Below the pieces are notes generated by a model, which worked only from the letters and a program-made list of their open reading frames with translations, was not told the origin of the DNA and did not search any database. Positions 3,258-24,261 of a DNA stretch of 57,817 nt are shown one piece after another. The stretch comes from Candidatus Omnitrophota bacterium (lineage in GTDB: Bacteria > Omnitrophota > Gorgyraeia > JABMRN01 > RBG-13-46-9). The translations under genes and the position numbers were made by a program. The number at the start of each line of letters is the position of its first letter. Position 1 is the first letter of the stretch. Where the stretch lies: assembly GCA_024542975.1 (NCBI GenBank), contig JAMXCZ010000003.1:1-57817 (forward strand), in the 5' to 3' direction.

Positions 3258-3272
3258 AAAGAAAAGATATTT

Positions 3273-8811: not shown

Positions 8812-8839
8812 ATAGTACGTAAATCCAATTTTACGACGC

Positions 8840-8868: not shown

Positions 8869-8908
8869 AAGCGTATGAAAACAAAAATGATTATAAAGGA
8901 GATATATT

Positions 8909-9346: not shown

Positions 9347-9349
9347 ACA

Positions 9350-10047: not shown

Positions 10048-10055
10048 GAGAAGCT

Positions 10056-10475
10056 ATGAATAAGAAGTGGTACTCGGGAATCATATTACTAGCAGTATTA
10101 CTTATACTAGGGTCAATTGACCAATTAAGAGATGGCGTGAGAATTGAATCATACCGATTACTTGCGCACCCATTACCAGAATTATATGTGATTATTCGTT
10201 ATGCTGTAGCTAAAATTTTCATATTTTTAGGACTCATTACAGCTATTGGTCTGTTTTTTAGAAGAAACATATCTAGAGTATTTGCAATTATTATAGGCAT
10301 TTACTTATCGGTGTTTTATTATTTAATAGAAGGTCCCCTGGCCGTAAAGAATTTGATAAGTTATGGGGTTGATATAAATGGTGCGGTTATACTTAAAATG
10401 ATAGGTGAATTTAGTTTTGGATTAAGTTTAATTTTATTTTTCACCCGGCCAAAAGTAAAGGAGATGTTTAGGTGA
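10056..10475 (+). CDS. Small multi-TM membrane protein, C-terminus FFTRPKVKEMFR
   Basis: About four TM segments, and a C-terminal motif shared with the preceding gene. Confidence 0.78.
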   Translation: MNKKWYSGIILLAVLLILGSIDQLRDGVRIESYRLLAHPLPELYVIIRYAVAKIFIFLGLITAIGLFFRRNISRVFAIIIGIYLSVFYYLIEGPLAVKNLISYGVDINGAVILKMIGEFSFGLSLILFFTRPKVKEMFR

Positions 10476-10720
10476 TAATTCTAGACATCATTGTCCTGAC
10501 CGCAGGATTTGGCTTATTAATATATGGCGCTTGGCAGCTTTACAATTTCAAGATGAAGGCCTATTTACTCATGGATTATACGTGGCATAGACTAGTCAAG
10601 AAGGATTGGTCAGGGCAAGATGATGAAGAAGCTCGGCATTACTTTAAGAGGGGGATTGTGGCGCTTATCGTGGGGATTATTCTTCTTTTGATAGCCTTTA
10701 AAATGTCAAATAGCCTATAG
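10472..10720 (+). CDS. Two-TM membrane protein
   Basis: GTGA overlap and two hydrophobic helices. Confidence 0.7.
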   Translation: MIILDIIVLTAGFGLLIYGAWQLYNFKMKAYLLMDYTWHRLVKKDWSGQDDEEARHYFKRGIVALIVGIILLLIAFKMSNSL

Positions 10721-10775
10721 TAAATAAAAAAGGAGACATTAACGCTTTTCCCACCTGCACAGAAAAGGAGTAAAA

Positions 10776-11096
10776 ATGTATATCCACCCTGACTTCAAGA
10801 ATTATATCAGCGATTTACTTTGTGCACGATGCAAGGAAACCAGAAAAGACTGTTCTGGTTGCCTACGGGATCTTTATGTTTCTTCTAATCTCGTAGAGCT
10901 TGCAAACGAGGATCTTGAGAAGTTTGTCGAAGATAAAGCGGCCTTTGTAGAATATTGCCGTTCTCGTTGCGTTCACTGTGATCAAAAAGTTAAAGACTGC
11001 GAGAAAGAAAAGTGGGCAGACTGCTTAAAAAGTTACGAGGGAGAGTTATTGGATAGGTTTGAGTTTGTGAATCATCAGGCTTTATGTTTGGCGTAG
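10776..11096 (+). CDS. Cys-rich hypothetical protein
   Basis: AAGGAG SD, with CARC, CSGC and CRSRCVHC clusters. Confidence 0.65.
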   Translation: MYIHPDFKNYISDLLCARCKETRKDCSGCLRDLYVSSNLVELANEDLEKFVEDKAAFVEYCRSRCVHCDQKVKDCEKEKWADCLKSYEGELLDRFEFVNHQALCLA

Positions 11097-11186
11097 ATGA
11101 TCAATGGTGATGTAGTGTGGGTGGGAAAACTTATTGGATATGAAGAAGAAACAACCTGCCTCAAAGTAAAGGAACGGTTTAAGTGA
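11097..11186 (+). pseudogene. Remnant 3' tip of a third KVKE.F(K/R) cassette (29-codon ORF)
   Basis: The ORF ends ...TTCLKVKERFK*, and its DNA resembles 10012-10047 and 10440-10475. It overlaps the next start (GTGA). Confidence 0.45.
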
Positions 11187-11485
11187 ATACAATAGAATGG
11201 ATAGTATGGATGATTTTTGCATTTATCACTGTTTTTGCAGGTATCATGTGGTTTATTCAAGATAAAAAGCATCCAACGGGGCAACGTTATGATACAAATG
11301 TTGTAGTTACGTTGCTTGCTTTACCAAGAATCGTTTTTTGGCAAATTCTTATATTAGTTCTATTTATTTTTGTAGATTTCAATAAACTAAATTTACTGTG
11401 GATTTATCCATTAGTCTGGTTTGGCATTTCGATAAAATGGGCTAAGCATGTCGATAAAAAAGATAAAGAAGGACTAAATAAATGA
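11183..11485 (+). CDS. Small membrane protein
   Basis: Three hydrophobic segments, GTG start. Confidence 0.7.
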   Translation: MNTIEWIVWMIFAFITVFAGIMWFIQDKKHPTGQRYDTNVVVTLLALPRIVFWQILILVLFIFVDFNKLNLLWIYPLVWFGISIKWAKHVDKKDKEGLNK

Positions 11486-11967
11486 CCCTCTTCGCAAAAC
11501 GAATAATGATAGTACTTGTGCTGATTTTTGCCTCATCACAGATCTATGCCCTCCAGGATGAATATACTCAAAAGGTTGAAGAGGGCGGCATTGAAGACTT
11601 GTATCTTGAGCAGGGCATGGTAAACGGTGAGTTTTGGAACAACATGAGCAATCAAGATAAATTTTCATACCTTCTTGGATATCAAGATGGGCTTATGGCA
11701 ACAACGGCACATTTTGTATCGGGCGAAGCAGAAAAAACAAAAGCAATGAGCAGTTTTCCAAAAGGAGTGTTTAATCAACTTATACCGCAGATAGATGAAT
11801 TTTACGCAGAAGAAAAGAATATGGACATCCCAATAAGCTATGTCCTAACGATAATACGAAATCGACAAAAAGGTACTGATGAGACAAAGATACAGAACTA
11901 CACAGAATATCTCCGGGATAGTCAGGGTAAAGATTTGAGGAAATCTATTGAGGGGGAGCAAGAATGA
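11482..11967 (+). CDS. Secreted hypothetical protein
   Basis: Signal peptide followed by NGEFW...KFSYLLGYQDG...IDEFY. Confidence 0.75.
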   Translation: MTLFAKRIMIVLVLIFASSQIYALQDEYTQKVEEGGIEDLYLEQGMVNGEFWNNMSNQDKFSYLLGYQDGLMATTAHFVSGEAEKTKAMSSFPKGVFNQLIPQIDEFYAEEKNMDIPISYVLTIIRNRQKGTDETKIQNYTEYLRDSQGKDLRKSIEGEQE

Positions 11968-12317
11968 CCCTCTCCGCAAAACAAAAGATAATACTATGGA
12001 TAACGATTGGGCTTATTGTTCTGCTAGTCGGGCTTAATGCGGAGCGTGACCAACGTTATACCAAGGATATAATCAACACAGATAAGATTAAAATGTATGG
12101 GTTGGTTTCTGTCGATACAGTTAAATTTTTTGGATTAAACATAGGCTCTTCGACAATTACTGTAGAGCCGTCCAAGGTCAAGAAGAATAAATCGATTTTT
12201 AGCGATTCAAGCAAAGGTTTCTGGTGGCTATGGCTCCTAGCATACTACAAATACCAGCTCATAGTAGCAACCCTTCTGATCGGGTTGATGTTGTTTATAA
12301 CGCTAAGGAAGAAGTGA
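11964..12317 (+). CDS. Two-TM membrane protein
   Basis: ATGA overlap. Its 5' end resembles that of the 11482 gene. Confidence 0.7.
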   Translation: MTLSAKQKIILWITIGLIVLLVGLNAERDQRYTKDIINTDKIKMYGLVSVDTVKFFGLNIGSSTITVEPSKVKKNKSIFSDSSKGFWWLWLLAYYKYQLIVATLLIGLMLFITLRKK

Positions 12318-12682
12318 GCAAAAAACTACTACTCTCTGTTTCAGTCTTTTTATGTATTTTTTTATGTGGTTGTGCTGCAGTAGAGAGACAATTAAACCCT
12401 CGCTCTTACTGGAAGAAAGAAATCAATAGAAGCGAAGCTTATCTCACCGCTTTAAAACAATTTGAAATAGATACTCTTCTTGAAATAAAGAAAAAACGGA
12501 TTACAATGCCAATCGAAATAAGGCAAGCTATAAATTTGGGCATTGATAGAGAGATGGCAACAGAAATGAGAAGGTTAGAATTGAAAGAAAACATTGAGCT
12601 TCTAAAAGAATTACGTAAGGATATAAAAGAAATACAGGAGAAACTAAATCAGGCTAAATATGAACTTAGTAAATATGAATAA
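12314..12682 (+). CDS. Putative coiled-coil lipoprotein
   Basis: A GTG start at 12314 gives MSKKLLLSVSVFLCIFLCGC (lipobox-like), followed by a helical charged region. Confidence 0.7.
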   Translation: MSKKLLLSVSVFLCIFLCGCAAVERQLNPRSYWKKEINRSEAYLTALKQFEIDTLLEIKKKRITMPIEIRQAINLGIDREMATEMRRLELKENIELLKELRKDIKEIQEKLNQAKYELSKYE

Positions 12683-12947
12683 ACCCATCAAAAAAATCAT
12701 AGCCAGAGAAGGGCTTGTAATTATCGGAATACTTCTAATATCTCTTATACTTTATGTCTACGCAAAATTTTTAGGACAAGGAGCAGGATATCGTGGTCTT
12801 GATGGAGCGATATTTATTTTAAGGCGACAAAAAAGCATCTTCCTTTTATCAAGTTTAATTCTTCTGTTTGGCTATCCTGTCCGCTGGTTACTCCATTATC
12901 CTATCCATTTTATCCTTTGGGCAATTAGAATATTAAGGGCGAAATGA
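12675..12947 (+). CDS. Small membrane protein (MNKPIKKIIAREG...)
   Basis: Two hydrophobic segments, overlapping the previous stop. Confidence 0.7.
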   Translation: MNKPIKKIIAREGLVIIGILLISLILYVYAKFLGQGAGYRGLDGAIFILRRQKSIFLLSSLILLFGYPVRWLLHYPIHFILWAIRILRAK

Positions 12948-13610: not shown

Positions 13611-13838
13611 TTAAGCTTTTCCTTTGAAATTAAGCAGTTTTGAAAGGCTTATACGAAAGGCATTAGCGAGCTTTTCTAGCGTATCTATCGTGGCTCCGGA
13701 GGGATTTTTACCTTCCAATAGTTGAATGTGTTTATAGTCTACCCCGGATAATTCCGATAACTTTTCTTGGGTATAACCCCGCTTCTTACGCAATTCTCTT
13801 AATCTTACCGCAAGCTTGAGCTTAGTTCCCATGTTCAT
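13611..13838 (-). CDS. XRE-family transcriptional repressor
   Basis: RLRELRKKRGYTQEKLSELSGVDYKHIQLLE...TLEKLANAF. It is the only credible minus-strand gene in the element. Confidence 0.88.
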   Translation of the reverse strand: MNMGTKLKLAVRLRELRKKRGYTQEKLSELSGVDYKHIQLLEGKNPSGATIDTLEKLANAFRISLSKLLNFKGKA

Positions 13839-13870
13839 AACGACACAATTATCACATACTTTGCTAGTCG

Positions 13871-13899
13871 TTGACACCGTAAGAATACGGTGATATACT
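13871..13899 (+). promoter_or_regulatory. Rightward promoter with overlapping palindromic operator
   Basis: TTGACA-17-TATACT with extended TG. The palindrome CACCGTA-AGAA-TACGGTG (13875-13892) fills the spacer. Confidence 0.75.
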
Positions 13900-13956: not shown

Positions 13957-14160
13957 ATGAGTCCTACAGATAAAATCCTATTTTTTTTAATTGTAACTAT
14001 CGAGAAAAGCCGGAGAAGGCTACTCGTTTGGCTAAAGCAAAAGCCATTTCTCTGTGGGGCTGTTGTAGTTTTTATCTCAAGTTTCATAATACCCCGCTAT
14101 TTCATACAAGCTCTTGTTTTGGCTATGGCTTTGTTTGTGATGCAGTTAAAGACAAGGTGA
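13957..14160 (+). CDS. Small membrane hypothetical protein
   Basis: 67 aa with a hydrophobic C-terminal half, first ORF after the promoter. Confidence 0.45.
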   Translation: MSPTDKILFFLIVTIEKSRRRLLVWLKQKPFLCGAVVVFISSFIIPRYFIQALVLAMALFVMQLKTR

Positions 14161-14165
14161 AGAAT

Positions 14166-14384
14166 ATGGACAAGCCGATATTGCTAGACCGGGGAGAGGC
14201 AGAGAGGATCGCTGGTGAAATACTAGACAAGCTCGAGCCAGAGAATTACCCGAAGATACTGGCCCTAACAAGGGAATCAGCAATCAGGGGGATCGTGGAT
14301 GGCGCGGCCGTGGGGAACGACCAGTACCGGGAAGGGTTCCTGACGAACACGGTGTTAGTGATGGAAGCCGACTTGTCGTATTAG
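14166..14384 (+). CDS. 72-aa hypothetical protein, paralog 1
   Basis: 54/72 aa identical to 15076-15294 (hand count), with an AAGGTG SD. Confidence 0.8.
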   Translation: MDKPILLDRGEAERIAGEILDKLEPENYPKILALTRESAIRGIVDGAAVGNDQYREGFLTNTVLVMEADLSY

Positions 14385-14476
14385 CGCTCCTAGATACTAG
14401 ACATAGAAATGCTCACCCTTTTTAATTGTGAATACCAACAAACAATTAAGTACAAGTTAAGAAAGGATCATGGTTA

Positions 14477-15058
14477 ATGGTTGCCGGATTCTCACCAACA
14501 GATGAAGGAAATGAGGTCGTTTGTACCTTTTGTGGAGAAGAATTTAAAAAAAAGGATTTAATTAAATTAGACGATGGCGAATGGGGCTGCCAGAATTGCA
14601 TTGAAGAGGGGGCGTCTATTATAAAGCAAGTCATTGCTCAACGACGAGATGGGAGAGCAGCTAATCAGGATAGAACGAAGCCCAAGAATGAAGAGAACGG
14701 GAAGAGTTTAAAAGAAAAGACGCAGGGGAAACCAAGCTTGAAAAGGTTACAAGAGTTGGTGAGGTGGAGACATATGGTGACATTGATGAAACAGTTTATA
14801 GAAGGGCAGTCTGACAAAATGAACAAACTGGTTTTGTATATCGTTCTTTGGCTAATAATTGTTATTACCGCGTACTCGTTTTTGATTCCGAAGTATTACT
14901 TTACCACAAATTATGGTGTGCCATATTACCGTTGCAATAGAGTAACCGGCGTTATCGAAAATGTTTTGGATGAAGCGGATGAAGCGGATGACGCGCGTGA
15001 TAAGGCTGAAGAGCCAAAGCTTTTGTGGTTTAAAAACCTCTTCAGAAGGAACAAATAG
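14477..15058 (+). CDS. C4 zinc-finger (ClpX-ZBD-like) plus TM-segment protein
   Basis: CTFC...CQNC followed later by a TM helix (LVLYIVLWLIIVITAYSFLI). Confidence 0.6.
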   Translation: MVAGFSPTDEGNEVVCTFCGEEFKKKDLIKLDDGEWGCQNCIEEGASIIKQVIAQRRDGRAANQDRTKPKNEENGKSLKEKTQGKPSLKRLQELVRWRHMVTLMKQFIEGQSDKMNKLVLYIVLWLIIVITAYSFLIPKYYFTTNYGVPYYRCNRVTGVIENVLDEADEADDARDKAEEPKLLWFKNLFRRNK

Positions 15059-15075
15059 AAAAGAAGGTGAATAAT

Positions 15076-15294
15076 ATGGACAAGCCGATACTACTAAACC
15101 GAGAGCAGGCCGAGAAGATCGCAAGCGAGATATTGAACGAGCTCGAGCCGGAGAACTACCCGAAGCTCCTGGCGTTAAACCGGGAATCAGCGATAAGGCG
15201 GATCGTAGACGGCGCGGCGGTGAGCAAAGACCAATACGAGGAAGGCTTCCTGACGAACGCCGTGTTGACGAACGAGAGCGACCTGTCCCGTTAG
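15076..15294 (+). CDS. 72-aa hypothetical protein, paralog 2
   Basis: Paralog of 14166-14384 with the same upstream AAGGTGA..AAT ATG context. Confidence 0.8.
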   Translation: MDKPILLNREQAEKIASEILNELEPENYPKLLALNRESAIRRIVDGAAVSKDQYEEGFLTNAVLTNESDLSR

Positions 15295-15431
15295 ACGAAC
15301 CTGTAAGTCCTCAAAAATCCTACCGAACTTCCGTAGAAGATTCCGAAGGTATTATACGAAGCTGGGAAGCTAACAAATAAAATGGCTTGAGTAGCCTGCG
15401 AAGTAGCGTTACAATAAAACAGCAATCAAAG

Positions 15432-16046
15432 ATGGAAAGGAGTCAAACAAAAATGAGAATATTAGAGCTCGATTTAGATGCTGGCATTAGCCCCATAAAT
15501 ATTACAAAAACTGAAGAACTCAAAAGACTTGGGAATCGCGCTAAAAAAAGAGAATTATCGCATGAACTTCAAAGCGAAGGAAGAAAAATTAGGAAAAAAT
15601 TTGATCTTCCAATTAATGGAATAAAAAAATTTCCAAGGGGCAAAAAGTTATCAGAATCAGAAAAAAAGCAGCATAAAGAAAAAAATAAACCTTTCAATTT
15701 AATTCTATTATCTCTACTCTATGATGATGAAGAACTTAAAGAACGGGGCATTGAGGGAAAAAGTCGAAAAAAAGAATATGAAGAGGACATAAGAGAGCTT
15801 CGACGTAAACTTTTTTTGCCAATGGAATTTCAAAAAACGCTAGCCCATTGGTATATACCATATAATAAAATTCCAGCAATTTACACTCATTCGTCCGGGT
15901 GTCAAATATGGCGTAAAGATGTAGACGGTGAAAGAATACTTTTTGTTAGCGTAACCGCCAAGACTAGACACAACGATTACAGACAAGTTTGGAGCTGTAT
16001 AGAAGAACAGCGGGATTTTTATTATAAAAGTGTTATTTTTAAATAA
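15432..16046 (+). CDS. Hypothetical basic protein
   Basis: Long Lys/Glu-rich ORF. The start is uncertain (15387, 15432 or 15453). Confidence 0.6.
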   Translation: MERSQTKMRILELDLDAGISPINITKTEELKRLGNRAKKRELSHELQSEGRKIRKKFDLPINGIKKFPRGKKLSESEKKQHKEKNKPFNLILLSLLYDDEELKERGIEGKSRKKEYEEDIRELRRKLFLPMEFQKTLAHWYIPYNKIPAIYTHSSGCQIWRKDVDGERILFVSVTAKTRHNDYRQVWSCIEEQRDFYYKSVIFK

Positions 16047-16140: not shown

Positions 16141-16180
16141 AGCCCCATAATAACTAAAAAGTTATTGTGGGGCTTTTTTT
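16141..16180 (+). terminator. Intrinsic terminator upstream of dnaB-like gene
   Basis: AGCCCCATAATAACT-AAAA-AGTTATTGTGGGGCT followed by a T-run. Confidence 0.8.
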
Positions 16181-16275: not shown

Positions 16276-17592
16276 GTGAAAGGACTGAAAAAAATGAGAC
16301 AAGCAAAAGAAGAAAATCTACCTACAATACCGCATAACGAAGAAGCCGAACGCGCTTGTTTGGCCTCACTCATACTAGACAAAAACCTCATAAACGAAGC
16401 TATCGAGACTATTGCTCCCGAGCATTTCTACGGCGCTCGAAATAGGACCGTGTATAAAGCCATACTTACCCTTGCAAAAGAAGGAAAGCCGGCAGACCTT
16501 GTAGTCTTAAACGACGTTTTAAAGAATAAGGACGTTCCCGCGTCCTTTTTGGTCGAACTTACTGCCTCAATTCCTACATCCGCAAACTTTCGCCATTACG
16601 CAGAAATACTTAAAGGCCACTATGTCCGGCGCCTGACAATAGAGAAATCATACCGCCATATCGAGGAGGCTCAAACTACCGATGATTATTCCGGACTTCT
16701 CGCTTTAGTAACGCAAGAATTTTCTAAGCTTGCCCAGGAGCAGATTAAAAGCGATATCCTGTCACCAAAGGAGTTGGCTAAGATAGGATTGAAGGATTTC
16801 ACCGATAGGCTTGATAATAAAATTGATTTTACAGGCTTTTCCAGTGGCTATTATCAGCTTGATAGGCTATGCGGAGGCTTTGGTCGAGGCGATCTGGTTA
16901 TCGTGGCTGGCCAGACAAGCATCGGCAAGAGCGCGTTCCTTTTAGATATTGCTTATCGGCAATCGATCCGAGGAGGCCTTAAATGCGCTTATTTTAGCCT
17001 GGAGATGGGTGTTTTTGAGATAGTCTATCGCCTTCTAAGTAAGATGACTTTTTTGGAATCCACCGCTATAAAAGCGCCTAAGCTTTTAAAAGAAGAACAA
17101 ATAAAAAAAGTCATACAGGCTGCAAATGCTCTGCACGATTCCAATTTTTTCCTCGATATCATGCCTATCATCAATCTTGAAAAGCTCTTGGCTAAAGCGC
17201 GAAAGATAAATGCAAAGGAGAATATCGACTTAATTTTTATAGACTACATACAGCTCATATCAACCAGGGTTAAAAATCAGGCAAGACACGAGGTTCTTTC
17301 GGATATAACTAAGGACCTAAAGCAGCTTGCCCGGGAGCTTGAAGTACCGGTAATCGCCGGCGCGCAACTTAACAGATCCACGCTCGAGAAAGCAGAGCCC
17401 AAGTTAAGCCATATCGGGGAAAGCTTTGCGATCGTGCAACATGCCGATTCCGTGATTTTAATTTCAAGAAACGACGCAAATGCAACCCTCAATATAGCCA
17501 AAGCCCGGCAAGCCAAAGGCGGAAAATTCGACTTAAGATTCGATTTTAAAACAGTCTCCTTTGTGGAGCGGGAGGTAGCTAATGATTTATGA
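16276..17592 (+). CDS. Element-encoded DnaB-like replicative helicase
   Basis: PHNEEAERACL N-terminal domain, Walker A AGQTSIGKS, FSLEM, IFIDYIQL, AQLNR and AKARQ. The start may be 16294. Confidence 0.92.
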   Translation: MKGLKKMRQAKEENLPTIPHNEEAERACLASLILDKNLINEAIETIAPEHFYGARNRTVYKAILTLAKEGKPADLVVLNDVLKNKDVPASFLVELTASIPTSANFRHYAEILKGHYVRRLTIEKSYRHIEEAQTTDDYSGLLALVTQEFSKLAQEQIKSDILSPKELAKIGLKDFTDRLDNKIDFTGFSSGYYQLDRLCGGFGRGDLVIVAGQTSIGKSAFLLDIAYRQSIRGGLKCAYFSLEMGVFEIVYRLLSKMTFLESTAIKAPKLLKEEQIKKVIQAANALHDSNFFLDIMPIINLEKLLAKARKINAKENIDLIFIDYIQLISTRVKNQARHEVLSDITKDLKQLARELEVPVIAGAQLNRSTLEKAEPKLSHIGESFAIVQHADSVILISRNDANATLNIAKARQAKGGKFDLRFDFKTVSFVEREVANDL

Positions 17593-17890
17593 GACTACTG
17601 ATATAAAACTTGGAGCTGCAATCCTCGCTGAAATCCTTGAGACCTTCTTCGTGGGTATTAGCAAAGAGAACTGTGTCGGCACAAAGAGACCTATCAAAAT
17701 AACCTATTCTGAGGAATACGCGGAGACGTTGAAAAAACTAATAGGAGACTACGAGAGAAAAGTTTTAATGGTAAATTTATACGAGTTTAATCGCGCGTTA
17801 TTTCTGATACGCAATGCGCTATTCGGAAGAAGTGGACATAATGGAAACGGATTGAGAGAAAGGAAGGCCGGAGGTGCAACTAGACGATAG
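17582..17890 (+). CDS. DUF5659-like phage/ICE protein
   Basis: YETTDIKLGAAIL...LYEFNRALFLIRNALF pattern, in a replication-module context. Confidence 0.55.
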   Translation: MIYETTDIKLGAAILAEILETFFVGISKENCVGTKRPIKITYSEEYAETLKKLIGDYERKVLMVNLYEFNRALFLIRNALFGRSGHNGNGLRERKAGGATRR

Positions 17891-18362
17891 AAAGAAGCGA
17901 ACCGTTCGAATCCCTACCGAAATATGGGAAGCCTTAACAAAGGTTAGAATTAGTGGTGAAGAATGGCAATGTTTATGTTTGATTTTAAGAAAAACTTACG
18001 GCTGGCATAAGAGCAAGGATTGGATATCCAATTCACAGTTTGTTAATGCTACCGGGATTAAGAAGCAGAGTGTAAATAGGGCGTTAAAAAAATTGATAGC
18101 GAAAAATATAGTAAGCAAAAAAGCTTACGAAAGTAGGCAGTTTTACGGATTAAACGAAGATCTTCGGAGATGGAAACCGTCAGCAAAAAAGCTTACTAAA
18201 AATGTAAGCAATAAAGCTTCTGGTAGTAAGCCAAAAAGCTTCTCAGATGTAAGCAATAATGCTGCCCACAAAAGCATTATTACAAAAGCATCTATTACAA
18301 AAGAGAAAGAGTTTGAAAAAACATTTGGTAAGAATCCAGAAGAATTTATAAGAAGAGTGTAG
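17874..18362 (+). CDS. Phage replication initiator, lambda O N-terminal type
   Basis: EAL...ILRKTYGWHKSKDWISNSQF...TG...RALKKL, with internal iterons. Confidence 0.85.
   Translation: MQLDDRKKRTVRIPTEIWEALTKVRISGEEWQCLCLILRKTYGWHKSKDWISNSQFVNATGIKKQSVNRALKKLIAKNIVSKKAYESRQFYGLNEDLRRWKPSAKKLTKNVSNKASGSKPKSFSDVSNNAAHKSIITKASITKEKEFEKTFGKNPEEFIRRV
18111..18304. repeat. Iteron array / replication origin inside the initiator gene
   Basis: Five 18-bp quasi-palindromes GTAAGC-N6-GCTTAC at 18111, 18179, 18204, 18226 and 18249, followed by AT-rich CAAAAGCA..TATTA repeats. Confidence 0.8.
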
Positions 18363-18544
18363 GTAAGAATCTATGGCATATAAGGACAGGATTTTTTGCG
18401 GCATTGTATTTAAAAACCTTAATTTTATGCATAGACCACGGAGGTCTGCGTCTCAGGATTGCTGCAGAAGAAAACTTAATCGGATCAGACCCTATCTCTC
18501 TAAAAAGTGAGCAGGGGTAGTGACTTTTTTTTGAACAGAAATTA

Positions 18545-18572
18545 ACTTCCGATAGTGGAGTTTATGTAAACT
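18545..18572 (+). other. dif-like XerC/XerD site
   Basis: ACTTCCGATAG-TGGAGT-TTATGTAAACT, an 11-6-11 layout. The right arm equals the Bacillus subtilis dif arm TTATGTAAACT, and the left arm shares ACTTCC. Confidence 0.75.
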
Positions 18573-18696
18573 ACATTTCGATATTCCTAACAGGTTTGAA
18601 TAGGAAAGGGTGCTTGATAATTTGTCAAAAAAACATGAAAAACCAGAAACTCAAAAGGTAGTTTTTAGTCAAAAATGAGATATTAAGAGGCGCAGG

Positions 18697-19137
18697 ATGA
18701 GAGGAAGAAAATTACAGATACCCGGCCAATGGAGCGTTAAGCAGCTAAGATTGCAGCAGATGCTAGCCGATCCGTTTGATAAGCGCGTTTTAGCTGAAAA
18801 AGCCAAAGAGGTAGGTATTAGCGAGCGCGTCCTTTACAAATGGAAAAATATGCCTGGCTGGCAAGATACTGTTTTTGAAATAGCGAAGAAATGGATAGGC
18901 GATGGCGCGCCAAAGGTATTAAGGGCCCTATATCATAAAGCAAAGGATACGGGGGATCCGGTATGTGTAAAGCTGTATTTGGAGATTATCGGTAAATATA
19001 CGCAGAAAACCGAGATGGACATTAGGGCAGGGAGGTTAGAGGAATTGAGCGATGAAGAGCTTAGAGACATTATCGCGAAAGGAGCTGCTTTTCAAAGCGG
19101 AGGCAGCGGGGGAGCTCCAAAGACGCTACCGGGATAA
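18697..19137 (+). CDS. Putative terminase small subunit (phBC6A51-like HTH)
   Basis: HTH AEKAKEVGISERVLYKW, then ALYHKA..GD...KLYLE and LSDEEL. It overlaps terL. Confidence 0.75.
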   Translation: MRGRKLQIPGQWSVKQLRLQQMLADPFDKRVLAEKAKEVGISERVLYKWKNMPGWQDTVFEIAKKWIGDGAPKVLRALYHKAKDTGDPVCVKLYLEIIGKYTQKTEMDIRAGRLEELSDEELRDIIAKGAAFQSGGSGGAPKTLPG

Positions 19138-20488
19138 CAGGATAGCGTATTATAATCCCCATAGGCTGCAGGAAAAGTTCCACAAGAGTCAGGCAATTAT
19201 TCGCCTGTTTCTCGGAGGAAATGGTGCCGGTAAAAGTATTGCTGGCGCTACTGAGACGACTTGGGCCTCCATAGGAAAACACCCTTATTGGAAATATCCC
19301 GTTCCATCAAGGGGTCGAATCGCGACTACATCATTTGATAAAATCGAACAAGTGATAATCCCTCAATTAGAGGCTTGGATTCCCAAAAGACAGGTCAGAG
19401 ACCGGAAGAAGAACAATCTTGGCATATATGCAAAATGGTGGCTTAAAAATGGCACTTTTTTCGATATTCTATCATATCAGCAGGATGTTGAGGAGTATGA
19501 GGGCGTTGATCTTGACTGGTTTTGGAGTGACGAGCCTATGCCTAAAGATAGATACCAAGCGACATTAGCGCGGTTTAGAAGAGTAGGCCGTATATGGATG
19601 ACACTAACGCCTTTAACTGAGCCCTGGATACTTGATGAGCTTGTTAATAACGCTGATGGAGAGTATATAGACGTGATAACAGCAGATATCATGGATAACT
19701 GTGTCGAAAAAGGCGGATACCTAAGCCGGGAAGCTATCGACTTAATGCTCAAGGGCTATGATGATGATGAGAAAGAAGCCCGGGCACATGGCCGTTTTAT
19801 CTTCCTGCAGGGCCTAATATATAAGTCTTTCGATAGAGATGTTCATGTTGTCGAGCCTTTTGATATTCCTAAAGACTGGACAAGGAAATGCATTGTAGAC
19901 CCACATGATCGGAAACCTTTTGCTATTGGGTGGCAAGCAACAAGTCCTACAGGCGACATATATGTGTATGATGAATGGCCGGAGTATGAGTTCCACAAGA
20001 AGAAGAGTTGCGATTTGACAATCGAGGATTATGCTAATGTTATCAAGATAAAAGAAGAAAAGCAGTTTATTGCAAGACGTCTTATCGATCCAAACTTCGG
20101 CAATGCCATAAACGTCCATACTAAGACTACGATAAAGCAAGATCTCGAGAATTACGGACTTGATTTCGAGGACGCTATTAATGATATACAATCTGGCCAT
20201 TTGAAGGTGAAGGAATATCTTAAATACGATAAATTAAAACCTCTGAGTAATACCAATAAGCCGAAGATCTATTTCTTTAAGACATGTCGAAATCATATCC
20301 ATGGAATGAGCCATTATTTATGGGATGAGTTCGCGGATAAGTCACGTTCGCCCAAACAGAAACCAAAAGATGCAAATAAAGACTTTCCCGATGTCGTCAG
20401 GTACGGGCTCATGGACGATTCGGGTTATCAGATTTTTAATGACGATATGTTAGCGTATCTGAAACATTACAAAGGCATGTCGACATGA
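19052..20488 (+). CDS. Terminase large subunit
   Basis: Q motif LQEKFH, Walker A GGNGAGKS, Walker B WFWSDE, motif III TLTP, nuclease IVDPH...LIDP...KDFPDVVRY. Confidence 0.92.
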   Translation: MKSLETLSRKELLFKAEAAGELQRRYRDNRIAYYNPHRLQEKFHKSQAIIRLFLGGNGAGKSIAGATETTWASIGKHPYWKYPVPSRGRIATTSFDKIEQVIIPQLEAWIPKRQVRDRKKNNLGIYAKWWLKNGTFFDILSYQQDVEEYEGVDLDWFWSDEPMPKDRYQATLARFRRVGRIWMTLTPLTEPWILDELVNNADGEYIDVITADIMDNCVEKGGYLSREAIDLMLKGYDDDEKEARAHGRFIFLQGLIYKSFDRDVHVVEPFDIPKDWTRKCIVDPHDRKPFAIGWQATSPTGDIYVYDEWPEYEFHKKKSCDLTIEDYANVIKIKEEKQFIARRLIDPNFGNAINVHTKTTIKQDLENYGLDFEDAINDIQSGHLKVKEYLKYDKLKPLSNTNKPKIYFFKTCRNHIHGMSHYLWDEFADKSRSPKQKPKDANKDFPDVVRYGLMDDSGYQIFNDDMLAYLKHYKGMST

Positions 20489-21213
20489 CAGAGCTACTCA
20501 GAGGAAATATTAAAGACGGTCTCGGCGGCAAGGAATTTTACGAGGTGGAAAAAGGGGAGTATACGATTTTAGAAAAGCCGAAACATTCTACTCAATACTT
20601 ATGTTCTGTGTGGCTTTCGCCCGGTATCTATAAGTTTAAAAGCTACATTATGGTTTTTGAGAAGACGCCCGGGGTAATCCGGCAGATTGCGGAATGGGCT
20701 GATATAACTTCACCTTCTCAGATAGAATCCGTGTTTGATAAGCTTGTAAGCTATTACTCTTACGAGACTATGCAAAGAATAATGGTCGGCGTAGGAAGGA
20801 ATACCCGGGGGGGGAATTTGATAAATGCCTTAGCAGGTAACCCAAGAAAACAGTATGACTTGTATAGAGAAAAAACAAGAGATGCTTCGACAGGTGTTAT
20901 GGAGCCGAAGGCGGGCATAATTGATGATGATAAAAACAGAATCGCTTTAATAGACGATTTACAAGAAGCCTTTTCCAATAACAGAATATACCCCTTACCG
21001 GATAGTAATGTAGATGTTCTAAAAAACATCATAGTTGATAAGGAGAAATATACAATCCCCGAGAAATATGAAGCTTATATTTTGTCCTTAGCTGGAGCTT
21101 ATAGGGTGTTTAAAGAGCATCCGCACAGAAAGCCGGTAGATCGCACGAGGATTAAAGCATTAATACAGGAACGGAGACAGAGATTAAACAATCCGTTTAG
21201 GAGATCTACATAG
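20485..21213 (+). CDS. Stand-alone TerL C-terminal nuclease-like domain, catalytic acids apparently lost
   Basis: Pattern ILEKP...YLCSVWLSPG...RQIAEW...VGVGRNTRGG...LIDDLQEA...YEAYILSLAGAY tracks the TerL RNase-H domain. Confidence 0.55.
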   Translation: MTELLRGNIKDGLGGKEFYEVEKGEYTILEKPKHSTQYLCSVWLSPGIYKFKSYIMVFEKTPGVIRQIAEWADITSPSQIESVFDKLVSYYSYETMQRIMVGVGRNTRGGNLINALAGNPRKQYDLYREKTRDASTGVMEPKAGIIDDDKNRIALIDDLQEAFSNNRIYPLPDSNVDVLKNIIVDKEKYTIPEKYEAYILSLAGAYRVFKEHPHRKPVDRTRIKALIQERRQRLNNPFRRST

Positions 21214-21265
21214 CCAGCGGACGAAAAATGCAAAAAAGTAGAAAGTGAGATAGATAGCGACTCCT

Positions 21266-21457
21266 ATGGAGAAGGTAGAGCAGAGGTATCTAAACGTAAA
21301 GGGCGTGGCAGCGTATTTAGGAACTACGCCGCTTACGATATATGATTGGGTGCGGAAGAGGAAGGTACCGGTTCATAAGCTTAATGGGAGCTTGAAGTTT
21401 GATAAGCTGGAAATAGATAGAATGATGGAAGAAAATCGAGTTAAAGAAATGGATTGA
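21266..21457 (+). CDS. xis: Excisionase / HTH_17 DNA-binding protein
   Basis: YLNVKGVAAYLG...TIYDWV...VPVHKLNGSLKFDKLEIDR. Confidence 0.85.
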   Translation: MEKVEQRYLNVKGVAAYLGTTPLTIYDWVRKRKVPVHKLNGSLKFDKLEIDRMMEENRVKEMD

Positions 21458-21482
21458 AATAGAAAGTATATGTGGCTATAAT
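21454..21482 (+). promoter_or_regulatory. sigma70 promoter for RT (and possibly int and the tRNAs)
   Basis: TTGAAA (overlapping the xis stop), 17 nt spacer, TATAAT. Confidence 0.7.
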
Positions 21483-21512
21483 AACCTTTAAAGGGTACTT
21501 TAAATTGTAACA

Positions 21513-23099
21513 ATGAAGATAATAAGTTTATTAAAAAAGGGTTATTTTCCGAAAGAGTTACCGCCGGCATTTACAACAGAATATTTTGCTAATAAATATT
21601 CCGCAATAGCAAAAGATTATAGAAAATTAGGTATAAGAGAAAAAAGTGAATCAAAGTGTGTCAATTTTTCGATTTTGAGGCAATTTTATTCCAGAAGGGA
21701 TTTAGGGATCCCGAATCCAATACATCAGTCGAACTTATCGAAATGCATTTGTGACAATTGGGCGCAAATTAATCGGTTTTATAAAAAATCACGAATTTCT
21801 GCAAGCAAACCAATAGTCGATTTATCACACAAACGGGCAGTCAGAACTAATTCATTTGCGGAATTTAAAAAACTTCGTTTACTTAATTCCTACGATAAAA
21901 TTTATGAACTAAAAACAGATATCTCCAGGTTTTACGCAACGCTCTATACTCATGCCATTCCCTGGGCGTTGCATACGAAAGCTGTAGCAAAGAGGCCGCC
22001 AAGGGATCCTAGATTATTGGGCAATGTGTTGGATAAAAGCATACGTGCCTGCCAGGCACGTCAATCGATAGGTATCCCTGTGGGCCCTGATACGTCATTA
22101 ATTATTGCAGAAATAATCAGTTGCGAAATCGATAATATTTTGCAGAATAAATTTAAAGATCTAAGGGGATACAGATATTACGATGATTATTATTTCTTTT
22201 TTTCAAAGCTAGAAGATGCGGAAAAAGTATTAAAAGAATACCAATGCACTTTAACAAGCTTAAATTTGGATATAAACGAAGAAAAGACAGAAATAAGAGA
22301 ACACCCTATACCATCCGATAAGGTTTGGGCAATTGAAATAGGTTCATTCAGGTTTCGCAATTCAGATAAAACACAAGAAAATGATCTAGAAAAATTTTTC
22401 AGCATATCCTTTAAATTTGCAAAAGAGAATCCAAAAGATTCAGTATTAAAATACGCAATTAAAAAAATTGAATATATTAAAATAAGGAACAAGAACTGGC
22501 CTTTTTTTGAGTCATTACTTTTAAAAACTGCGCTTGTTGCGCCTTTAACTTTGCCGGAAGTAACACGAATTTTATATAGTTATTCAAAAAGAGTTGATAA
22601 AAGTAAAGTAAAAAACGTAGTCGAGCAGATAATTGAAAAGCATGTTCTCATGGGGCATTCGTTCGAGGTATCATGGTCTCTATGGCTGGCTAAGACTTTT
22701 CACTTAAAAATCAACGACGATATCGCAAAGCATATTTTTAATTCTAGCGATGTTATCTCTATTTTAATTGCACTTGATCTAAAAAGTATGCGTTTAATCG
22801 ATTCGAAAGTAGACACTAGTAGTCTGCTAAATGAATTAACCGAAAATTCTCTGTACGATGATAAATGGCTATTAACTTACGAATCAATAATTAAAAAATG
22901 GTTGAACCCAACTTCAGATCCAGTTAGTATCGAGCCATATTTCAAAACATTGAAAAAGCATAAAGTTAGATTTTATGACGGCACCAAACAAGTAGAAATT
23001 ATTAAGTTTAAAAAGCGAAGAAGGGCACCAACTCCATTCCCTGGACTAGCAAGACATCTACGAATGTTTTATGCCGATGAAGAACCGGATGAAATCTAA
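21513..23099 (+). CDS. Reverse transcriptase, UG/Abi class-1 type (AbiK/Abi-P2/DRT-like), putative anti-phage
   Basis: GYFPKELPPAF, LGIPNP, DISRFYATLYTHAIPWA, GIPVGPDTSLIIAEI, YRYYDDY and INEEKT motifs, with a helical C-terminal domain. Confidence 0.9.
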   Translation: MKIISLLKKGYFPKELPPAFTTEYFANKYSAIAKDYRKLGIREKSESKCVNFSILRQFYSRRDLGIPNPIHQSNLSKCICDNWAQINRFYKKSRISASKPIVDLSHKRAVRTNSFAEFKKLRLLNSYDKIYELKTDISRFYATLYTHAIPWALHTKAVAKRPPRDPRLLGNVLDKSIRACQARQSIGIPVGPDTSLIIAEIISCEIDNILQNKFKDLRGYRYYDDYYFFFSKLEDAEKVLKEYQCTLTSLNLDINEEKTEIREHPIPSDKVWAIEIGSFRFRNSDKTQENDLEKFFSISFKFAKENPKDSVLKYAIKKIEYIKIRNKNWPFFESLLLKTALVAPLTLPEVTRILYSYSKRVDKSKVKNVVEQIIEKHVLMGHSFEVSWSLWLAKTFHLKINDDIAKHIFNSSDVISILIALDLKSMRLIDSKVDTSSLLNELTENSLYDDKWLLTYESIIKKWLNPTSDPVSIEPYFKTLKKHKVRFYDGTKQVEIIKFKKRRRAPTPFPGLARHLRMFYADEEPDEI

Positions 23100-24179
23100 A
23101 TGAGCTTATACAAAAGAGAAAAAAACTGGTATATAGATTATCACGCTTATGGAAAGCGCATTAGGGAAGTCATAGGGGCCGACAGAAAGCTTGCTGAAAC
23201 CGTTCTTGCCAAACGAAAGCTTGCCATAACAGAAAACCGTTTTCTTGATATAAAAAAGAAAAGCAGAACAACCTTCAATGAACTGTGCGATCTTTACATA
23301 GAACTTCACGCAAAACCCAATAAGAGGCATTGGCAAAGGTCAGATGCGCTTCACCAGAGGCGCTTAAAAGAGTTTTTTGGCAATCCAAGAATAGCGGCGA
23401 TAGCTCAGGAGCAAGTAGAGCTATATAAGGCAAAGAGGCTTGAAGAAGTGTCGCCTGCAACCGTTAATCGAGAATTAACTTGCCTTAAGCACATGTTTAA
23501 TAAGGCAATCGAGTGGAAGAAGATCGAATATAATCCTGCAGCGAGGGTTAAGAAGCTCAGGGAGAACAATGCCAGAATGCGTTACTTAGAAAAAGAAGAA
23601 ATTAGAACGCTGATAGATAACTGTAATGATACCGTTAGGCCGGTTGTAATTCTTGGACTATATACAGGTATGCGGCAAGGGGAGATGCTTAACCTTAAAT
23701 GGCGAGACATAGATATAGGTAAGGGCATACTGTACATATTAAGGACAAAGAATGACGAACCGAGAGAAATCCCAATGTGTGATATTGTAAAGAGGACTCT
23801 CATAGCAATTCCAAAACACAAAGATAGTCCTTATGTGTTTTGCAAAAAGAATGGTAAGCCTTATGGGAAGCTTAGGAAAAGCTTCTTGCAAGCATTGGAT
23901 AAATCTGGTATACTACATTTTCGTTTTCACGATCTTAGACATACTTTCGCGTCGCAATTTATGATGGCAGGCGGCGAGCTTAATACTTTGAGAGAGCTTT
24001 TGGGCCATAAGGATATTAAGATGACATTAAGGTATTCTCACTTGTCAAGAGACCATAAACGCAGGGCAATGGAGAATTTTGACCGGCAGATGGTCACAAA
24101 TCGGTCACAAGCGCCGGAAACAAACTTTTTAGATAGTTTACGCGATTCTCATAACATCTTTGAAAATAAAGAGTTATAG
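23100..24179 (+). CDS. int: Tyrosine integrase
   Basis: TGMRQGE (R), TKN (K), HDLRH, LLGH and RYSH catalytic residues, with an N-terminal arm-binding region. Confidence 0.96.
   Translation: MSLYKREKNWYIDYHAYGKRIREVIGADRKLAETVLAKRKLAITENRFLDIKKKSRTTFNELCDLYIELHAKPNKRHWQRSDALHQRRLKEFFGNPRIAAIAQEQVELYKAKRLEEVSPATVNRELTCLKHMFNKAIEWKKIEYNPAARVKKLRENNARMRYLEKEEIRTLIDNCNDTVRPVVILGLYTGMRQGEMLNLKWRDIDIGKGILYILRTKNDEPREIPMCDIVKRTLIAIPKHKDSPYVFCKKNGKPYGKLRKSFLQALDKSGILHFRFHDLRHTFASQFMMAGGELNTLRELLGHKDIKMTLRYSHLSRDHKRRAMENFDRQMVTNRSQAPETNFLDSLRDSHNIFENKEL
24093..24111 (+). repeat. Integrase arm-type site inside the 3' end of int
   Basis: GTCACAAATCGGTCACAAG matches 797-815. Confidence 0.7.
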
Positions 24180-24183
24180 CACT

Positions 24184-24261
24184 GGGGCCATAGCTCAATT
24201 TGGTTAGAGCATCTGACTCATAATCAGGTGGTTCCTGGTTCAAGTCCAGGTGGCCCCACCA
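24184..24261 (+). tRNA. tRNA(CAT), probably tRNA-Ile2; contains attR
   Basis: Cloverleaf with GGGGCCA/TGGCCCC acceptor stem, CT-CAT-AA loop, GTTCAAG T-loop and encoded CCA. It resembles Ile2 and lacks initiator features. Confidence 0.92.

Follow-up and report, generated by a model that had tools for sequence, protein, structure and literature searches.

Gene content of the tRNA-Met island

The window, that is, the whole stretch of 57,817 nt analysed here, carries a low-GC island of 23,550 bp between two 48-nt repeats, attL and attR (Table 1), with a GC content of 0.33–0.45 over 1–24 kb vs. 0.44–0.52 further on. The repeats agree at 45 of 48 positions, and their final 40 nt are identical and correspond to the 5′ half of the tRNA-Met(CAT) gene, up to the anticodon loop. 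All named genes of the island are open frames, on the + strand except for the repressor gene. The att repeats and the open frames for DnaB, an O-like initiator with iterons, TerS, TerL, Xis, a reverse transcriptase (RT) and Int, which the original prediction had listed, were confirmed by repeat matching and by Pfam, PHROG and PADLOC searches. The dif-like site that it had also named was not reproduced, a scan with an E. coli-type dif consensus, which may differ from that of the host, giving 0 matches at ≤3 mismatches.

By their family matches, the genes at 3273–8306 form a type IIG restriction-modification cargo. The RT matched the PADLOC Drt4 model PDLC02177 over its full length (residues 4–502), with a near-equal Drt6 score that leaves DRT4 and DRT6 unseparated, while the 215-aa cargo ORF had no Pfam, PHROG or PADLOC match. 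The small ORFs at 8530–12947 gave matches at chance level only, among them a holin (phrog_1299, E 0.031) and an Rz-like protein (phrog_12081, E 0.095). A 236-nt repeat (14149–14384 and 15059–15294) accounts for the paralogous small ORFs of the early region. Within the initiator ORF, an 18–22-nt repeat is present in 4–5 copies at 18109–18263, forming the iterons, and no primase family was matched in the island by Pfam or PHROGs.

Table 1. Features of the island, with positions in the window
Feature	Position	Strand	Evidence or remark
attL: displaced 5′ half of tRNA-Met	626–673	+	40 nt identical to attR plus 8 nt diverged flank; repeat match 94%; matches query 27–74
215-aa cargo ORF, HEPN-like (lead only)	976–1623	+	Atlas feature scores 0.92–0.94 to clusters with HEPN in 56–58% of members
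C5 DNA methylase	3273–4379	+	PF00145 3.4e-63
N6 methylase	4376–5713	+	PF07669 2e-14
BpuSI-like type IIG enzyme	5649–8306	+	PF22008 2.3e-14; REase_MTase_IIG 1.3e-129
Twelve co-oriented small ORFs, 82–161 aa, mostly membrane/secreted by eye	8530–12947	+	Chance-level matches only
88-aa cI/Cro-type HTH repressor, without peptidase domain	13611–13877	-	PF01381 1.9e-10; phrog_8 6.6e-13
Promoter-like site, rightward early operon	13871–13899	+	Consensus match alone: 11/12 positions, with TG
Early-region ORFs, function unassigned; paralogous small ORFs and a zinc-ribbon ORF (14477–15058)	13957–16046	+	
Terminator-like hairpin upstream of dnaB	16141–16174	+	15-bp stem, then T run
DnaB-type replicative helicase	16276–17592	+	PF03796 3.6e-60; PF00772 1e-23; phrog_19 4.1e-88
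Lambda O-like replication initiator	17874–18362	+	PF04492 8.6e-21; phrog_277 5e-26
334-nt intergenic region with inverted repeats	18363–18696		Candidate pac or regulatory region
Small terminase subunit (TerS)	18697–19137	+	PF13022 2.2e-11; phrog_24579 1e-9
Large terminase subunit (TerL), full length, ATPase and nuclease motifs retained	19052–20488	+	PF03237 2e-5; phrog_2 3.9e-15
orf242: standalone 242-aa protein, TerL-nuclease fold, acidic triad apparently absent	20485–21213	+	Predicted binder of TerL C-terminal tail
Excisionase (Xis) / AlpA-type HTH_17 protein	21266–21457	+	PF12728 1.6e-9; phrog_66 3.2e-9
Defence-type RT, DRT4/DRT6 class	21513–23099	+	PF00078 3.4e-10; PADLOC Drt4 1.3e-185; Drt6 1.8e-181
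Tyrosine integrase (Int)	23100–24179	+	PF00589 1.4e-29; phrog_1 8.9e-81
attR inside intact tRNA-Met(CAT) gene (24184–24261)	24176–24261	+	attR = 24176–24223

TerL and its nuclease-like companion orf242

Every invariant column of 20 homologues was present in TerL, including K61, D160/E161, D283, D346 and D447 (invariant or near-invariant), and the Asp motifs of its nuclease aligned with those of the solved D6E TerL (5oea), indicating a Walker A/B ATPase joined to an RNase H-like nuclease with three acidic residues. Related genes were found on three metagenome contigs (L082, L083 and L084), where the C-terminal half of TerL is 78–81% identical and is followed by an orf242 homologue. Selection on TerL is strongly purifying, with a pN of 0.126 vs. 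a pS of 0.855 between the window and L083, and a dN/dS of 0.038/0.769 between L083 and L082. Since synonymous sites between the variants are saturated and TerL is nevertheless this similar, it appears to have been kept up for long in a lineage without an adjacent portal in the sequence compared, although the selection could be older than a shared loss of head genes.

The orf242 protein had no sequence-family match in Pfam or PHROGs, and hhalign found no sequence match between it and TerL. Its AlphaFold model (pLDDT 84) was matched by Foldseek to TerL nuclease domains in the PDB at E 1e-8 to 1e-5 (T4 gp17 1.2e-8, RB49 gp17 nuclease 6.8e-8, G20c 5.2e-7), with a TM by target of 0.66–0.72, and the named entries among its top BFVD matches were all terminases. 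These results support an RNase H-like terminase nuclease fold for the modelled protein, so that the extra TerL-like domain noticed earlier was borne out by fold and not by sequence families. In strand 1 (37–43) and at the end of strand 4 (100–106) of the predicted structure, with positions mapped by secondary-structure order, no conserved D/E was present, and E196 was the sole invariant acidic residue among 7 family members; read from the motif positions in this way, orf242 seems to lack the acidic catalytic residues.

Only 6 relatives of orf242 were found among 1.84 billion representatives, and no homologues in 81 related phage loci, in 50,697 GenBank phage records or, by pattern scan, in IMG/VR; across these collections, the protein is confined to this element lineage. 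Further, between the window and L083, TerL residues 230–456 were identical at 192 of 227 positions, whereas the tail (457–478) was so at 5 of 22 and orf242 at 33–36%, that is, the last 22 residues of TerL and orf242 diverge together. In complex models, TerL 457–478 was placed on orf242 156–186 with a score of 0.70, compared with 0.00 for the best of 3 controls, at least 61% of the contacts were common to the runs, and the partner pLDDT was at least 80. Of the solved complexes, 58 of 80 attained the mark set for this score, as did 2 of 110 mismatched pairs. This calibration is only rough, as the alignments were made within the analysis, and the score may mirror likeness to solved TerL structures, whose C-terminal arm packs on TerL's own domains.

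Search for structural genes in the island and its relatives

As the original prediction had stated, no capsid, portal, protease, tail or lysis family was matched at E<0.01 by any of the 36 island ORFs in Pfam and PHROGs, and no portal, major capsid, tail or lysis genes of a complete tailed prophage were recognised inside the att-bounded element. HMMs for portal, major capsid protein (MCP) and scaffold, built from the 81 related phage loci, gave chance-level matches at best, with E 0.078 on 417 six-frame ORFs of window positions 1–25000 and E 0.016 on 9023 ORFs of the source genome. PF04860 and PF05065 had 0 matches in the source genome, and PF12236 had 0 matches there as well as in 14 control genomes and is hence uninformative. 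The fold comparison against HK97 and portal proteins suggested earlier was run with Foldseek on orf242, the one hypothetical protein with a predicted structure, and returned the TerL nuclease fold, while the remaining hypothetical ORFs were covered by profiles, with nothing at E<0.01. About 20 ORFs, one of them folded, have no family assignment, and a complete but unrecognisable virus could have its structural proteins among them. This is very improbable, as the largest unassigned ORFs have 215–223 aa, compared with ~650–770 aa for the portals and ~300 aa for the capsid proteins of related phages, and the twelve ORFs at 8530–12947 are smaller still.

The relatives also carried no recognisable head genes in the sequence compared (6.1 kb, 11.4 of 18.8 kb, and 10.4 of 40.2 kb), the 4.8–10 kb after the orf242 homologue being without a portal or MCP HMM match. 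Instead, three variants diverge from the orf242 stop codon onward and carry different cargo, of defence or TA-like kinds: a Panacea/SocA protein, a PLD nuclease and a trypsin-like 860-aa protein follow on L083/L084, and a methylase/helicase on L082. L083/L084 also carry homologues of 12660–12947, 13957–14160 and 14477–15058. Because cluster members lie on 40–51-kb contigs, the size of whole phage genomes, and only parts were compared, their head genes could sit in the parts beyond. The synteny search recovered the TerL-orf242 pair on the three contigs. The family is rare: TerL was absent from the 17 other genomes of the order; samples of 401 genomes each from the phylum and the class yielded it in the source genome alone, and a TerL pattern scan of all GTDB species genomes gave one distant match. 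The element itself is known from a single complete copy.

Related phages, in contrast, mostly have a portal downstream of TerL (74 of 81 loci, median spacing 756 bp), and 6 of the 7 loci without one have <650 bp downstream of TerL. The closest TerLs outside the element clade are those of MW202718 (37% identity), an uncultured 42.6-kb podovirus and the closest deposited genome, and of IMG/VR relatives (28–42%). These are complete phages with the order TerS-TerL-portal-MCP and without an orf242 homologue, whereas the island has no recognisable portal or MCP.

The island could be a tidy prophage remnant, left by a podovirus-like temperate phage whose head, tail and lysis module gave way to the cargo, the terminase genes being non-packaging relics and the island being kept through its defence cargo and integrase. 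Such remnants are common, the TerL family otherwise belongs to phages of 41–54 kb with an adjacent portal, the island is about half their size, and searches of the 92%-complete source genome revealed neither a portal nor an MCP of a possible helper. Moreover, in sister genomes the same tRNA-Met site is occupied by plain cargo islands with related integrases, one of them, in G013, of ~6 kb with an Int 76% identical. Against this, the backbone contains no pseudogene or truncated frame, the packaging module of all three diverged variants ends at the orf242 stop, TerL was apparently kept up for long, and orf242 is absent from the phages examined. A remnant of this kind is the main rival, possible but on the whole doubtful.

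We give about an even chance to the reading that the island is an integrative, helper-dependent phage satellite of an undescribed kind, with its own complete terminase and no capsid. The gene inventory and the lack of recognisable structural genes agree with the original prediction, whose satellite is partly supported, with the remnant as its competitor. The satellite reading is strengthened because independent relatives keep TerL and the nuclease-like protein as a pair, with no portal in the sequence compared, because selection on TerL is purifying, and because the nuclease-like protein is limited to this element lineage. It is the sequence itself that shows which genes are present, where the att sites lie and that structural genes are not recognisable; the island probably spreads by filling another phage's capsids.

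Comparison with known satellites and a proposed cycle

According to the source passages compared, classical PICIs/SaPIs combine an integrase, a repressor or AlpA-type regulator and replication of their own with a packaging-redirecting TerS, lack structural genes and in many cases bring defence genes along; they replicate by means of a primase-replicase, and their median size is 9.5 kb, with 20–28 kb in 17 of 1435 (PMC10085698). The island resembles them in its integrase, its own replication genes, its TerS, its defence cargo and the lack of recognisable structural genes; it also has an HTH_17 protein, which may be an excisionase or an AlpA-type regulator, and a cI-type HTH_3 repressor. It differs in having DnaB and a lambda O-like initiator in place of a primase-replicase module, in its 23.5 kb, and in encoding a full-length TerL and a TerL-nuclease-like protein, where TerS is the only packaging or structural gene of a PICI. 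In the same sources, cf-PICIs are integrative satellites that encode TerS and TerL, package their own DNA and steal only tails, being defined also by a major capsid protein, portal, protease and head-tail adaptor/connector (PMC10085698, PMC10690885). The island shares the TerL and TerS and has no recognisable counterpart of those head genes by Pfam/PHROG match at E<0.01, nor, beyond chance level, by the custom HMMs; the cf-PICI descriptions compared do not mention an orf242-like protein. The earlier contrast between PICIs with TerS only and cf-PICIs with TerL together with capsid genes holds in these passages.

Other recently described satellite families with packaging genes, compared from partial descriptions, also differ. 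In the Streptomyces satellites MulchRoom/MiniFlayer, TerS and TerL are accompanied by portal and capsid genes, PICI-like tycheposons have an MCP or a TerS, and for VEIMEs, compared by description only, TerS homologues and "motor-like ATPases" have been reported. As far as these descriptions go, the gene set of the island, with integration, replication and packaging enzymes and no shell gene, is not described among phage satellites. We know of no described satellite whose own TerL docks on a foreign portal, a point against the satellite reading. In phage lambda, the small accessory protein gpFI aids docking of the terminase-DNA complex on the prohead; by this described role only, it is a possible functional analogue of orf242, which has a TerL-nuclease fold.

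In the PLE of Vibrio cholerae, Gpi binds the TerL of ICP1 (10.1101/2024.04.22.590561). PLE (Gpi, GpsA/B) is alike in manipulating a packaging motor via a TerL-binding protein but has no TerL of its own, so that Gpi targets that of the helper, whereas the predicted target of orf242 is the tail of the element's own TerL. The PLE precedent of a satellite targeting a helper terminase, the richness of the island in defence genes (type IIG restriction-modification, DRT4, HEPN-like ORF) and the likeness of orf242 to an inactive decoy of a TerL domain would also suit a module in which TerS, TerL and orf242 are kept to sabotage the packaging of invading phages, by portal competition or concatemer cutting, and not to move the island. 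We consider such an interference role improbable, since the element also keeps TerS and a full excision and replication set, sensible for moving its own DNA, and since orf242 is predicted to pair with the TerL tail of the element itself.

As a satellite, the element would cycle as follows. Int would insert the circular 23.5-kb element at the tRNA-Met anticodon loop, and the 88-aa HTH repressor, without a self-cleavage domain, would hold it silent until a helper-derived signal lifts repression. Int and Xis would then excise the element, and the O-like initiator would bind the iterons in its own gene and load the element's DnaB, leading to concatemers. TerS would mark this DNA, and TerL would cut it and pump it into procapsids of a co-infecting phage, putatively one of the podovirus-like clade with related TerLs; speculatively, the element in two copies (47.1 kb) would be enough to fill heads made for the 41–54-kb genomes of such phages. 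The restriction-modification system, the DRT4 RT and the HEPN-like gene would be defence cargo that pays for the upkeep of the element.

As a putatively inactive version of the TerL nuclease fold, orf242 may clamp the last ~22 residues of TerL, the arm by which terminases lock domains or dock on the portal, and thereby serve, in the manner of an adaptor or regulator, to match the element's motor to the helper portal or to block the helper's own motor. Tentatively, and with less than even confidence, this putatively dead nuclease copy and the matching TerL tail may form an exchangeable cassette that docks the satellite motor onto the portal of a chosen helper or excludes the helper's motor. If this is true, helper range would be set by swapping "tail plus adaptor".

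Integration site and gene content of the island

The window is a single contig (C52, 57,817 bp) of an assembly of 1.55 Mb in 110 contigs with 91.85% completeness. A 48-nt direct repeat, matching at 45 of 48 positions, delimits the island of 23,550 bp; the last 40 nt of the repeat are identical in both copies and correspond to the 5′ half of tRNA-Met(CAT) up to the anticodon loop, and tRNA-Val follows next. GC content was 0.33–0.45 inside the repeats vs. 0.44–0.52 for the remaining contig, which outside the island carries a cell-division/cell-wall cluster (RsmH, FtsI, MurE, MraY, and FtsW) and IleS. The tRNA-Met site is an integration hot spot. In the sister genome G013 (C2:1–6009), an island of about 6 kb with an integrase 76% identical to that of the window is flanked by the same half-tRNA repeat; it carries a Laminin_G_3 protein, an RDD membrane protein, a methyltransferase and a 41% homologue of the window ORF 9350–9709, while terminase and replication genes are absent from it. 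In G015, a second sister genome, an integrase with 47% identity lies together with an Xis-like ORF at tRNA-Met/tRNA-Val, where a contig end interrupts the locus.

Features of the island in order from attL to tRNA-Met
Feature	Position	Strand	Remark
attL repeat copy	626-673		
HEPN-like ORF, 215 aa	976-1623	+	lead only; language-model features, scores 0.92-0.94
C5 methylase, N6 methylase, BpuSI-like type IIG restriction-modification enzyme		+	PADLOC 1.3e-129 (IIG enzyme)
Twelve tandem small ORFs, 82-161 aa	8530-12947	+	without family
Zinc-ribbon ORF		+	
HTH_3 repressor, 88 aa		-	faces strong promoter-like site
Promoter-like site	13871-13899		
Early ORFs		+	no assigned function
Terminator-like hairpin	16141-16174		strong; 15-bp stem and T run; between early ORFs and dnaB-O-terS-terL block
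DnaB		+	
ORF of 102 aa		+	after DnaB
Lambda O-like initiator		+	4-5 iterons within gene
Spacer, 334 nt			between O-like initiator and TerS
TerS		+	
TerL	19052-20488	+	
orf242, 242 aa	20485-21213	+	
HTH_17 protein		+	excisionase/AlpA-type
Reverse transcriptase		+	DRT4/DRT6 class; Drt4 1.3e-185
Tyrosine integrase		+	abuts tRNA
attR repeat copy	24176-24223		
tRNA-Met(CAT)	24184-24261		

All island genes lie on the plus strand except the repressor. Open-frame and family annotation bore out the gene inventory of the original prediction, a co-oriented backbone from DnaB to the integrase; the dif-like site listed with it was not reproduced, as an E. coli-type consensus, a weak test, gave 0 matches at three or fewer mismatches. 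The ORF adjoining attL yielded a confident Atlas model (pTM 0.82) and probably adds to the cargo of defence or toxin-antitoxin genes. Just 5′ of the methylase genes, a short frame (3051–3254) is 67% identical over 27 aa to positions 3656–3775 of the metagenome contig L082, whose surrounding cargo is otherwise unrelated to that of the window; the frame may be a control element in common or a small regulator of restriction-modification cassettes. Most of the twelve tandem ORFs have hydrophobic or signal-like segments. The one at 12224–12682 combines a lipobox-like 'LCGC' with a coiled-coil tail and scored E 0.095 with an Rz-like family, and that at 10056–10475 scored E 0.031 with a holin family, both at chance level and the nearest lysis-type scores in the island. 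Together these ORFs could make up a cassette for lysis or exclusion; alternatively, they could be cargo of the host surface.

In the early region, a 236-nt direct repeat (14149–14384 and 15059–15294, 76% identical) codes for two paralogous small ORFs, and an Atlas search with the ORF 15387–16046 gave no usable match. The hairpin preceding dnaB suggests that the replication/packaging module would need a second promoter or antitermination.

TerL and the search for structural genes

Judged by its sequence, the TerL of the window is a normal, intact phage terminase. It has 150 homologues at E ≤ 0.001 and matches all columns that are invariant in an alignment of 20 sequences, among them Walker A K61, D160/E161, D283, D346, and D447, and its family profile aligns with the solved D6E TerL across the three nuclease Asp motifs. 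It is 28–42% identical to the TerLs of 81 phage loci (the best 80 of 98 IMG/VR stretches plus one distant Patescibacteria MAG locus), and a portal gene lies 3′ of TerL in 74 of these 81 (best 80 of 98 plus one), at a median distance of 756 bp (range −42 to 4340). Among the remaining seven loci, six have less than 650 bp of downstream sequence, and the seventh, L071, carries a 658-aa ORF at +1017 that is outside the reach of the custom portal HMM. Portal and major head protein were confirmed by PHROGs in the locus L004. The closest deposited genome, a circular podovirus record of 42,585 bp with a 37% identical TerL, is annotated by its depositors with TerS, TerL, portal and major capsid protein. 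In a midpoint-rooted FastTree phylogeny of 74 TerLs, the window TerL groups with P0001 and P0002 in a tight clade, whose apparent sister is a large group of TerLs linked to portals.

A small ORF of about 160–250 aa is interposed between TerL and portal in 35 of the 81 loci (best 80 of 98 plus one; L020, L024, L027, and L033 among them). In L020 it is phrog_546; an HMM of this ORF matched the window TerS weakly (E 0.0017), and the ORF is unrelated to orf242.

The expectation that no structural gene would be recognisable in the island was confirmed, Pfam, PHROGs and custom HMMs all giving no match above chance. With E < 0.01 as the cut-off, Pfam and PHROGs assigned the 36 ORFs to no family of capsid, portal, tail, protease or lysis proteins. 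Portal, capsid and scaffold HMMs, built from the phage relatives of TerL and run with filters off, gave best E-values of 0.078 on 417 stop-to-stop frames (window 1–25000) and 0.016 on 9023 frames of the whole genome, which at 5.6–12.4 bits is chance level. The largest ORFs without assignment are of 215–223 aa. Because orf242 was the sole ORF folded, the fold comparison covering it alone and the remaining hypothetical ORFs being compared by profiles, a small or novel structural fold may persist among the others.

No helper prophage was found in the same genome, since 40 of the 9023 frames had blastp matches in the full ORF set of the phage loci, none of them to any portal, MCP/capsid or scaffold family member. 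PF04860 and PF05065 had no match in the genome; nor had PF12236, but this family was silent in control genomes too, so its silence says little. The window TerL was the only PF03237 match in the genome. No CRISPR array, and hence no spacers pointing to a helper, emerged when the 110 contigs were scanned by a simple k-mer method. TerL was not detected in the 17 other genomes of the order or in 400-genome samples of the class and of the phylum, and when all species genomes were scanned by pattern, one distant Patescibacteria match was the only one returned.

orf242 and the TerL tail

orf242, encoded directly after TerL, had no match in Pfam, PHROGs or PADLOC. A profile search of a 5.8-billion set returned five proteins including orf242 itself, and six relatives of 172–239 aa were found among 1.84 billion representatives. 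On this comparison, orf242 is therefore a complete protein in its own right, not a piece of a gene. With a 7-sequence alignment, AlphaFold modelled it at pLDDT 84.2 and pTM 0.81 (only pLDDT 38.5 as a single sequence). Foldseek placed TerL nuclease domains on top (T4 gp17, 1.2e-8; RB49 gp17 nuclease, 6.8e-8; G20c, 5.2e-7) with TM-scores by target of 0.66–0.72, every named row among the BFVD top matches was a terminase, and the predicted strand order agrees with an RNase H-like terminase nuclease. Profile-profile comparison (hhalign) of the orf242 and TerL families gave no sequence similarity (probability 0.2). Conserved Asp or Glu was found neither on strand 1 (37–43) nor after strand 4 (100–106), motif positions being assigned by strand order and not by superposition, and E196 alone is invariant in the family; from this model we infer that orf242 would be 'catalytically dead'.

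Two other identities were considered for orf242 and discarded. A truncated portal is out, given the six standalone relatives and the TerL-nuclease fold. The nuclease half of a split TerL is out as well, since TerL itself aligns across the nuclease motifs and phage TerL homologues of equal length lack orf242.

No orf242 homologue was found in the 81 phage loci (best 80 of 98 plus one; phmmer 0, HMM best E 0.72), in 50,697 GenBank phage records or, by pattern scan, in IMG/VR. One scan of JGI metagenomes with the orf242 alignment yielded three contigs, L082, L083, and L084, the last two 99.99% identical across 10.4 kb. In L082 and L083, the ORF directly 5′ of the orf242 homologue is a TerL C-terminal half, 78–81% identical to the window; the orf242 homologues themselves are just 33–36% identical. 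Between window and L083, 192 of 227 TerL residues are identical at 230–456, but only 5 of 22 at 457–478, and this drop extends on into orf242; the tails of the clade share the pattern G-x-x-[IL]-F ... L-K. In these alignments, the TerL tail and orf242 thus appear to go together in their divergence.

A TerL–orf242 complex model scored 0.70, compared with 0.00 for the best of three controls (own alignments; the calibration is rough). In the calibration, 58 of 80 solved complexes attained the mark for this score, against 2 of 110 mismatched pairs. Different runs had at least 61% of contacts in common, with partner pLDDT ≥80, and the predicted interface places TerL 457–478 on orf242 156–186 and a few N-terminal residues. 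The model supports binding of orf242 to the TerL tail, while its score may partly mirror solved TerLs, whose C-terminal arm packs on their own domains.

Helper-dependent element or prophage remnant

With the gene inventory and the absence of recognisable structural genes upheld, the satellite proposed originally, packaging itself into helper procapsids with its own motor, is better founded than before and stands as plausible only; a helper-dependent element is the most economical reading. Its main rival is a prophage remnant, and only one complete copy of the element is known. On the relatives, 10 kb (L083/L084) and 4.8 kb (L082) 3′ of the orf242 homologue were examined, and portal, capsid and scaffold HMMs had no match there; for a remnant, head genes could lie beyond these stretches, elsewhere on the 18.8-kb and 40–51-kb relatives. 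In L083/L084 the 3′ cargo comprises a SocA/Panacea protein, a phrog_1353 protein, a PLD-family nuclease and an 860-aa protein with a trypsin-like domain, beyond which lie small ORFs homologous to the window 12660, 13957, and 14477 ORFs; in L082 it comprises a 289-aa ORF on the opposite strand, a 222-aa ORF and a methylase/helicase. The DNA of L082 and L083 is 91% identical across TerL and orf242 and unrelated beyond, so the packaging module has a common end in three variants with different cargo following. Such an end, common to diverged variants, speaks against a remnant, as do the clean frames, the lineage-specific TerL partner, and synonymous divergence that is saturated while TerL is conserved (pN 0.126 and pS 0.855, window vs. 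L083). Between L083 and L082, dN and dS were 0.038 and 0.769 for TerL, and 0.023 and 0.147 for the orf242 homologue. A cluster look-up placed L083-type TerL and orf242 on several more contigs of 9–51 kb; some members are Omnitrophica MAGs according to NCBI, the only named relatives.

The independent contigs L083 (1–770) and L084 (1–435), which represent one element, break less than about 1 kb apart, within the TerL 3′ end or orf242. Strain variation where the hypervariable TerL tail meets orf242 could account for this, as could a physical end of the genome close to the packaging genes.

As a helper-dependent element, the island would carry out its own integration, excision and replication and would cut its DNA and translocate it, particle building being beyond its gene set. 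Because the 88-aa HTH repressor has no self-cleavage domain, it is plausible that a helper-encoded factor lifts repression, by analogy with SaPI Stl, a case of helper-driven derepression. Candidate helpers would be podovirus-like phages of the sister TerL clade, with genomes of 41–54 kb; two island copies amount to 47.1 kb, speculatively near the helper genome size. On the TerL tail, orf242 might serve as a regulator or adaptor, with lambda gpFI a possible functional analogue.

P4, PICI and PLE use the packaging motor of their helper, whereas the island has its own; cf-PICI and MulchRoom have a motor and their own capsid, whereas the island has a motor without capsid. With the SatelliteFinder paper as comparison source for satellite classes (PMC10085698), the literature describes TerS and TerL alongside portal and capsid in cf-PICI and MulchRoom/MiniFlayer (PMC10690885), TerS homologues and 'motor-like ATPases' in VEIMEs (PMC9618062), MCP or TerS in PICI-like tycheposons (10.1101/2020.12.28.424599), a PLE protein, Gpi, that binds the TerL of the helper, and, as reported, TerS without TerL in EPIPs, whose listed genes include those for scaffolding and major capsid proteins although EPIPs are described as being without capsid proteins (PMC12822802). 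Archaeal SRCE/pSSVx satellites may have a viral ATPase without MCP (10.1101/2025.02.15.638363), a conceptual parallel only. Among the papers covered by the literature search, none described a satellite that has TerS and TerL but no capsid.

A motor-only element would bridge these two strategies and, if true, raises the question of how a foreign TerL engages a helper portal; the co-diverging TerL tail and its nuclease-like partner are a candidate specificity determinant for this engagement. Software that relies on capsid or primase markers would overlook such elements. If real, the island would be a new variety of phage satellite with a mechanistically interesting TerL-tail partner, and would extend satellites to a little-studied lineage.
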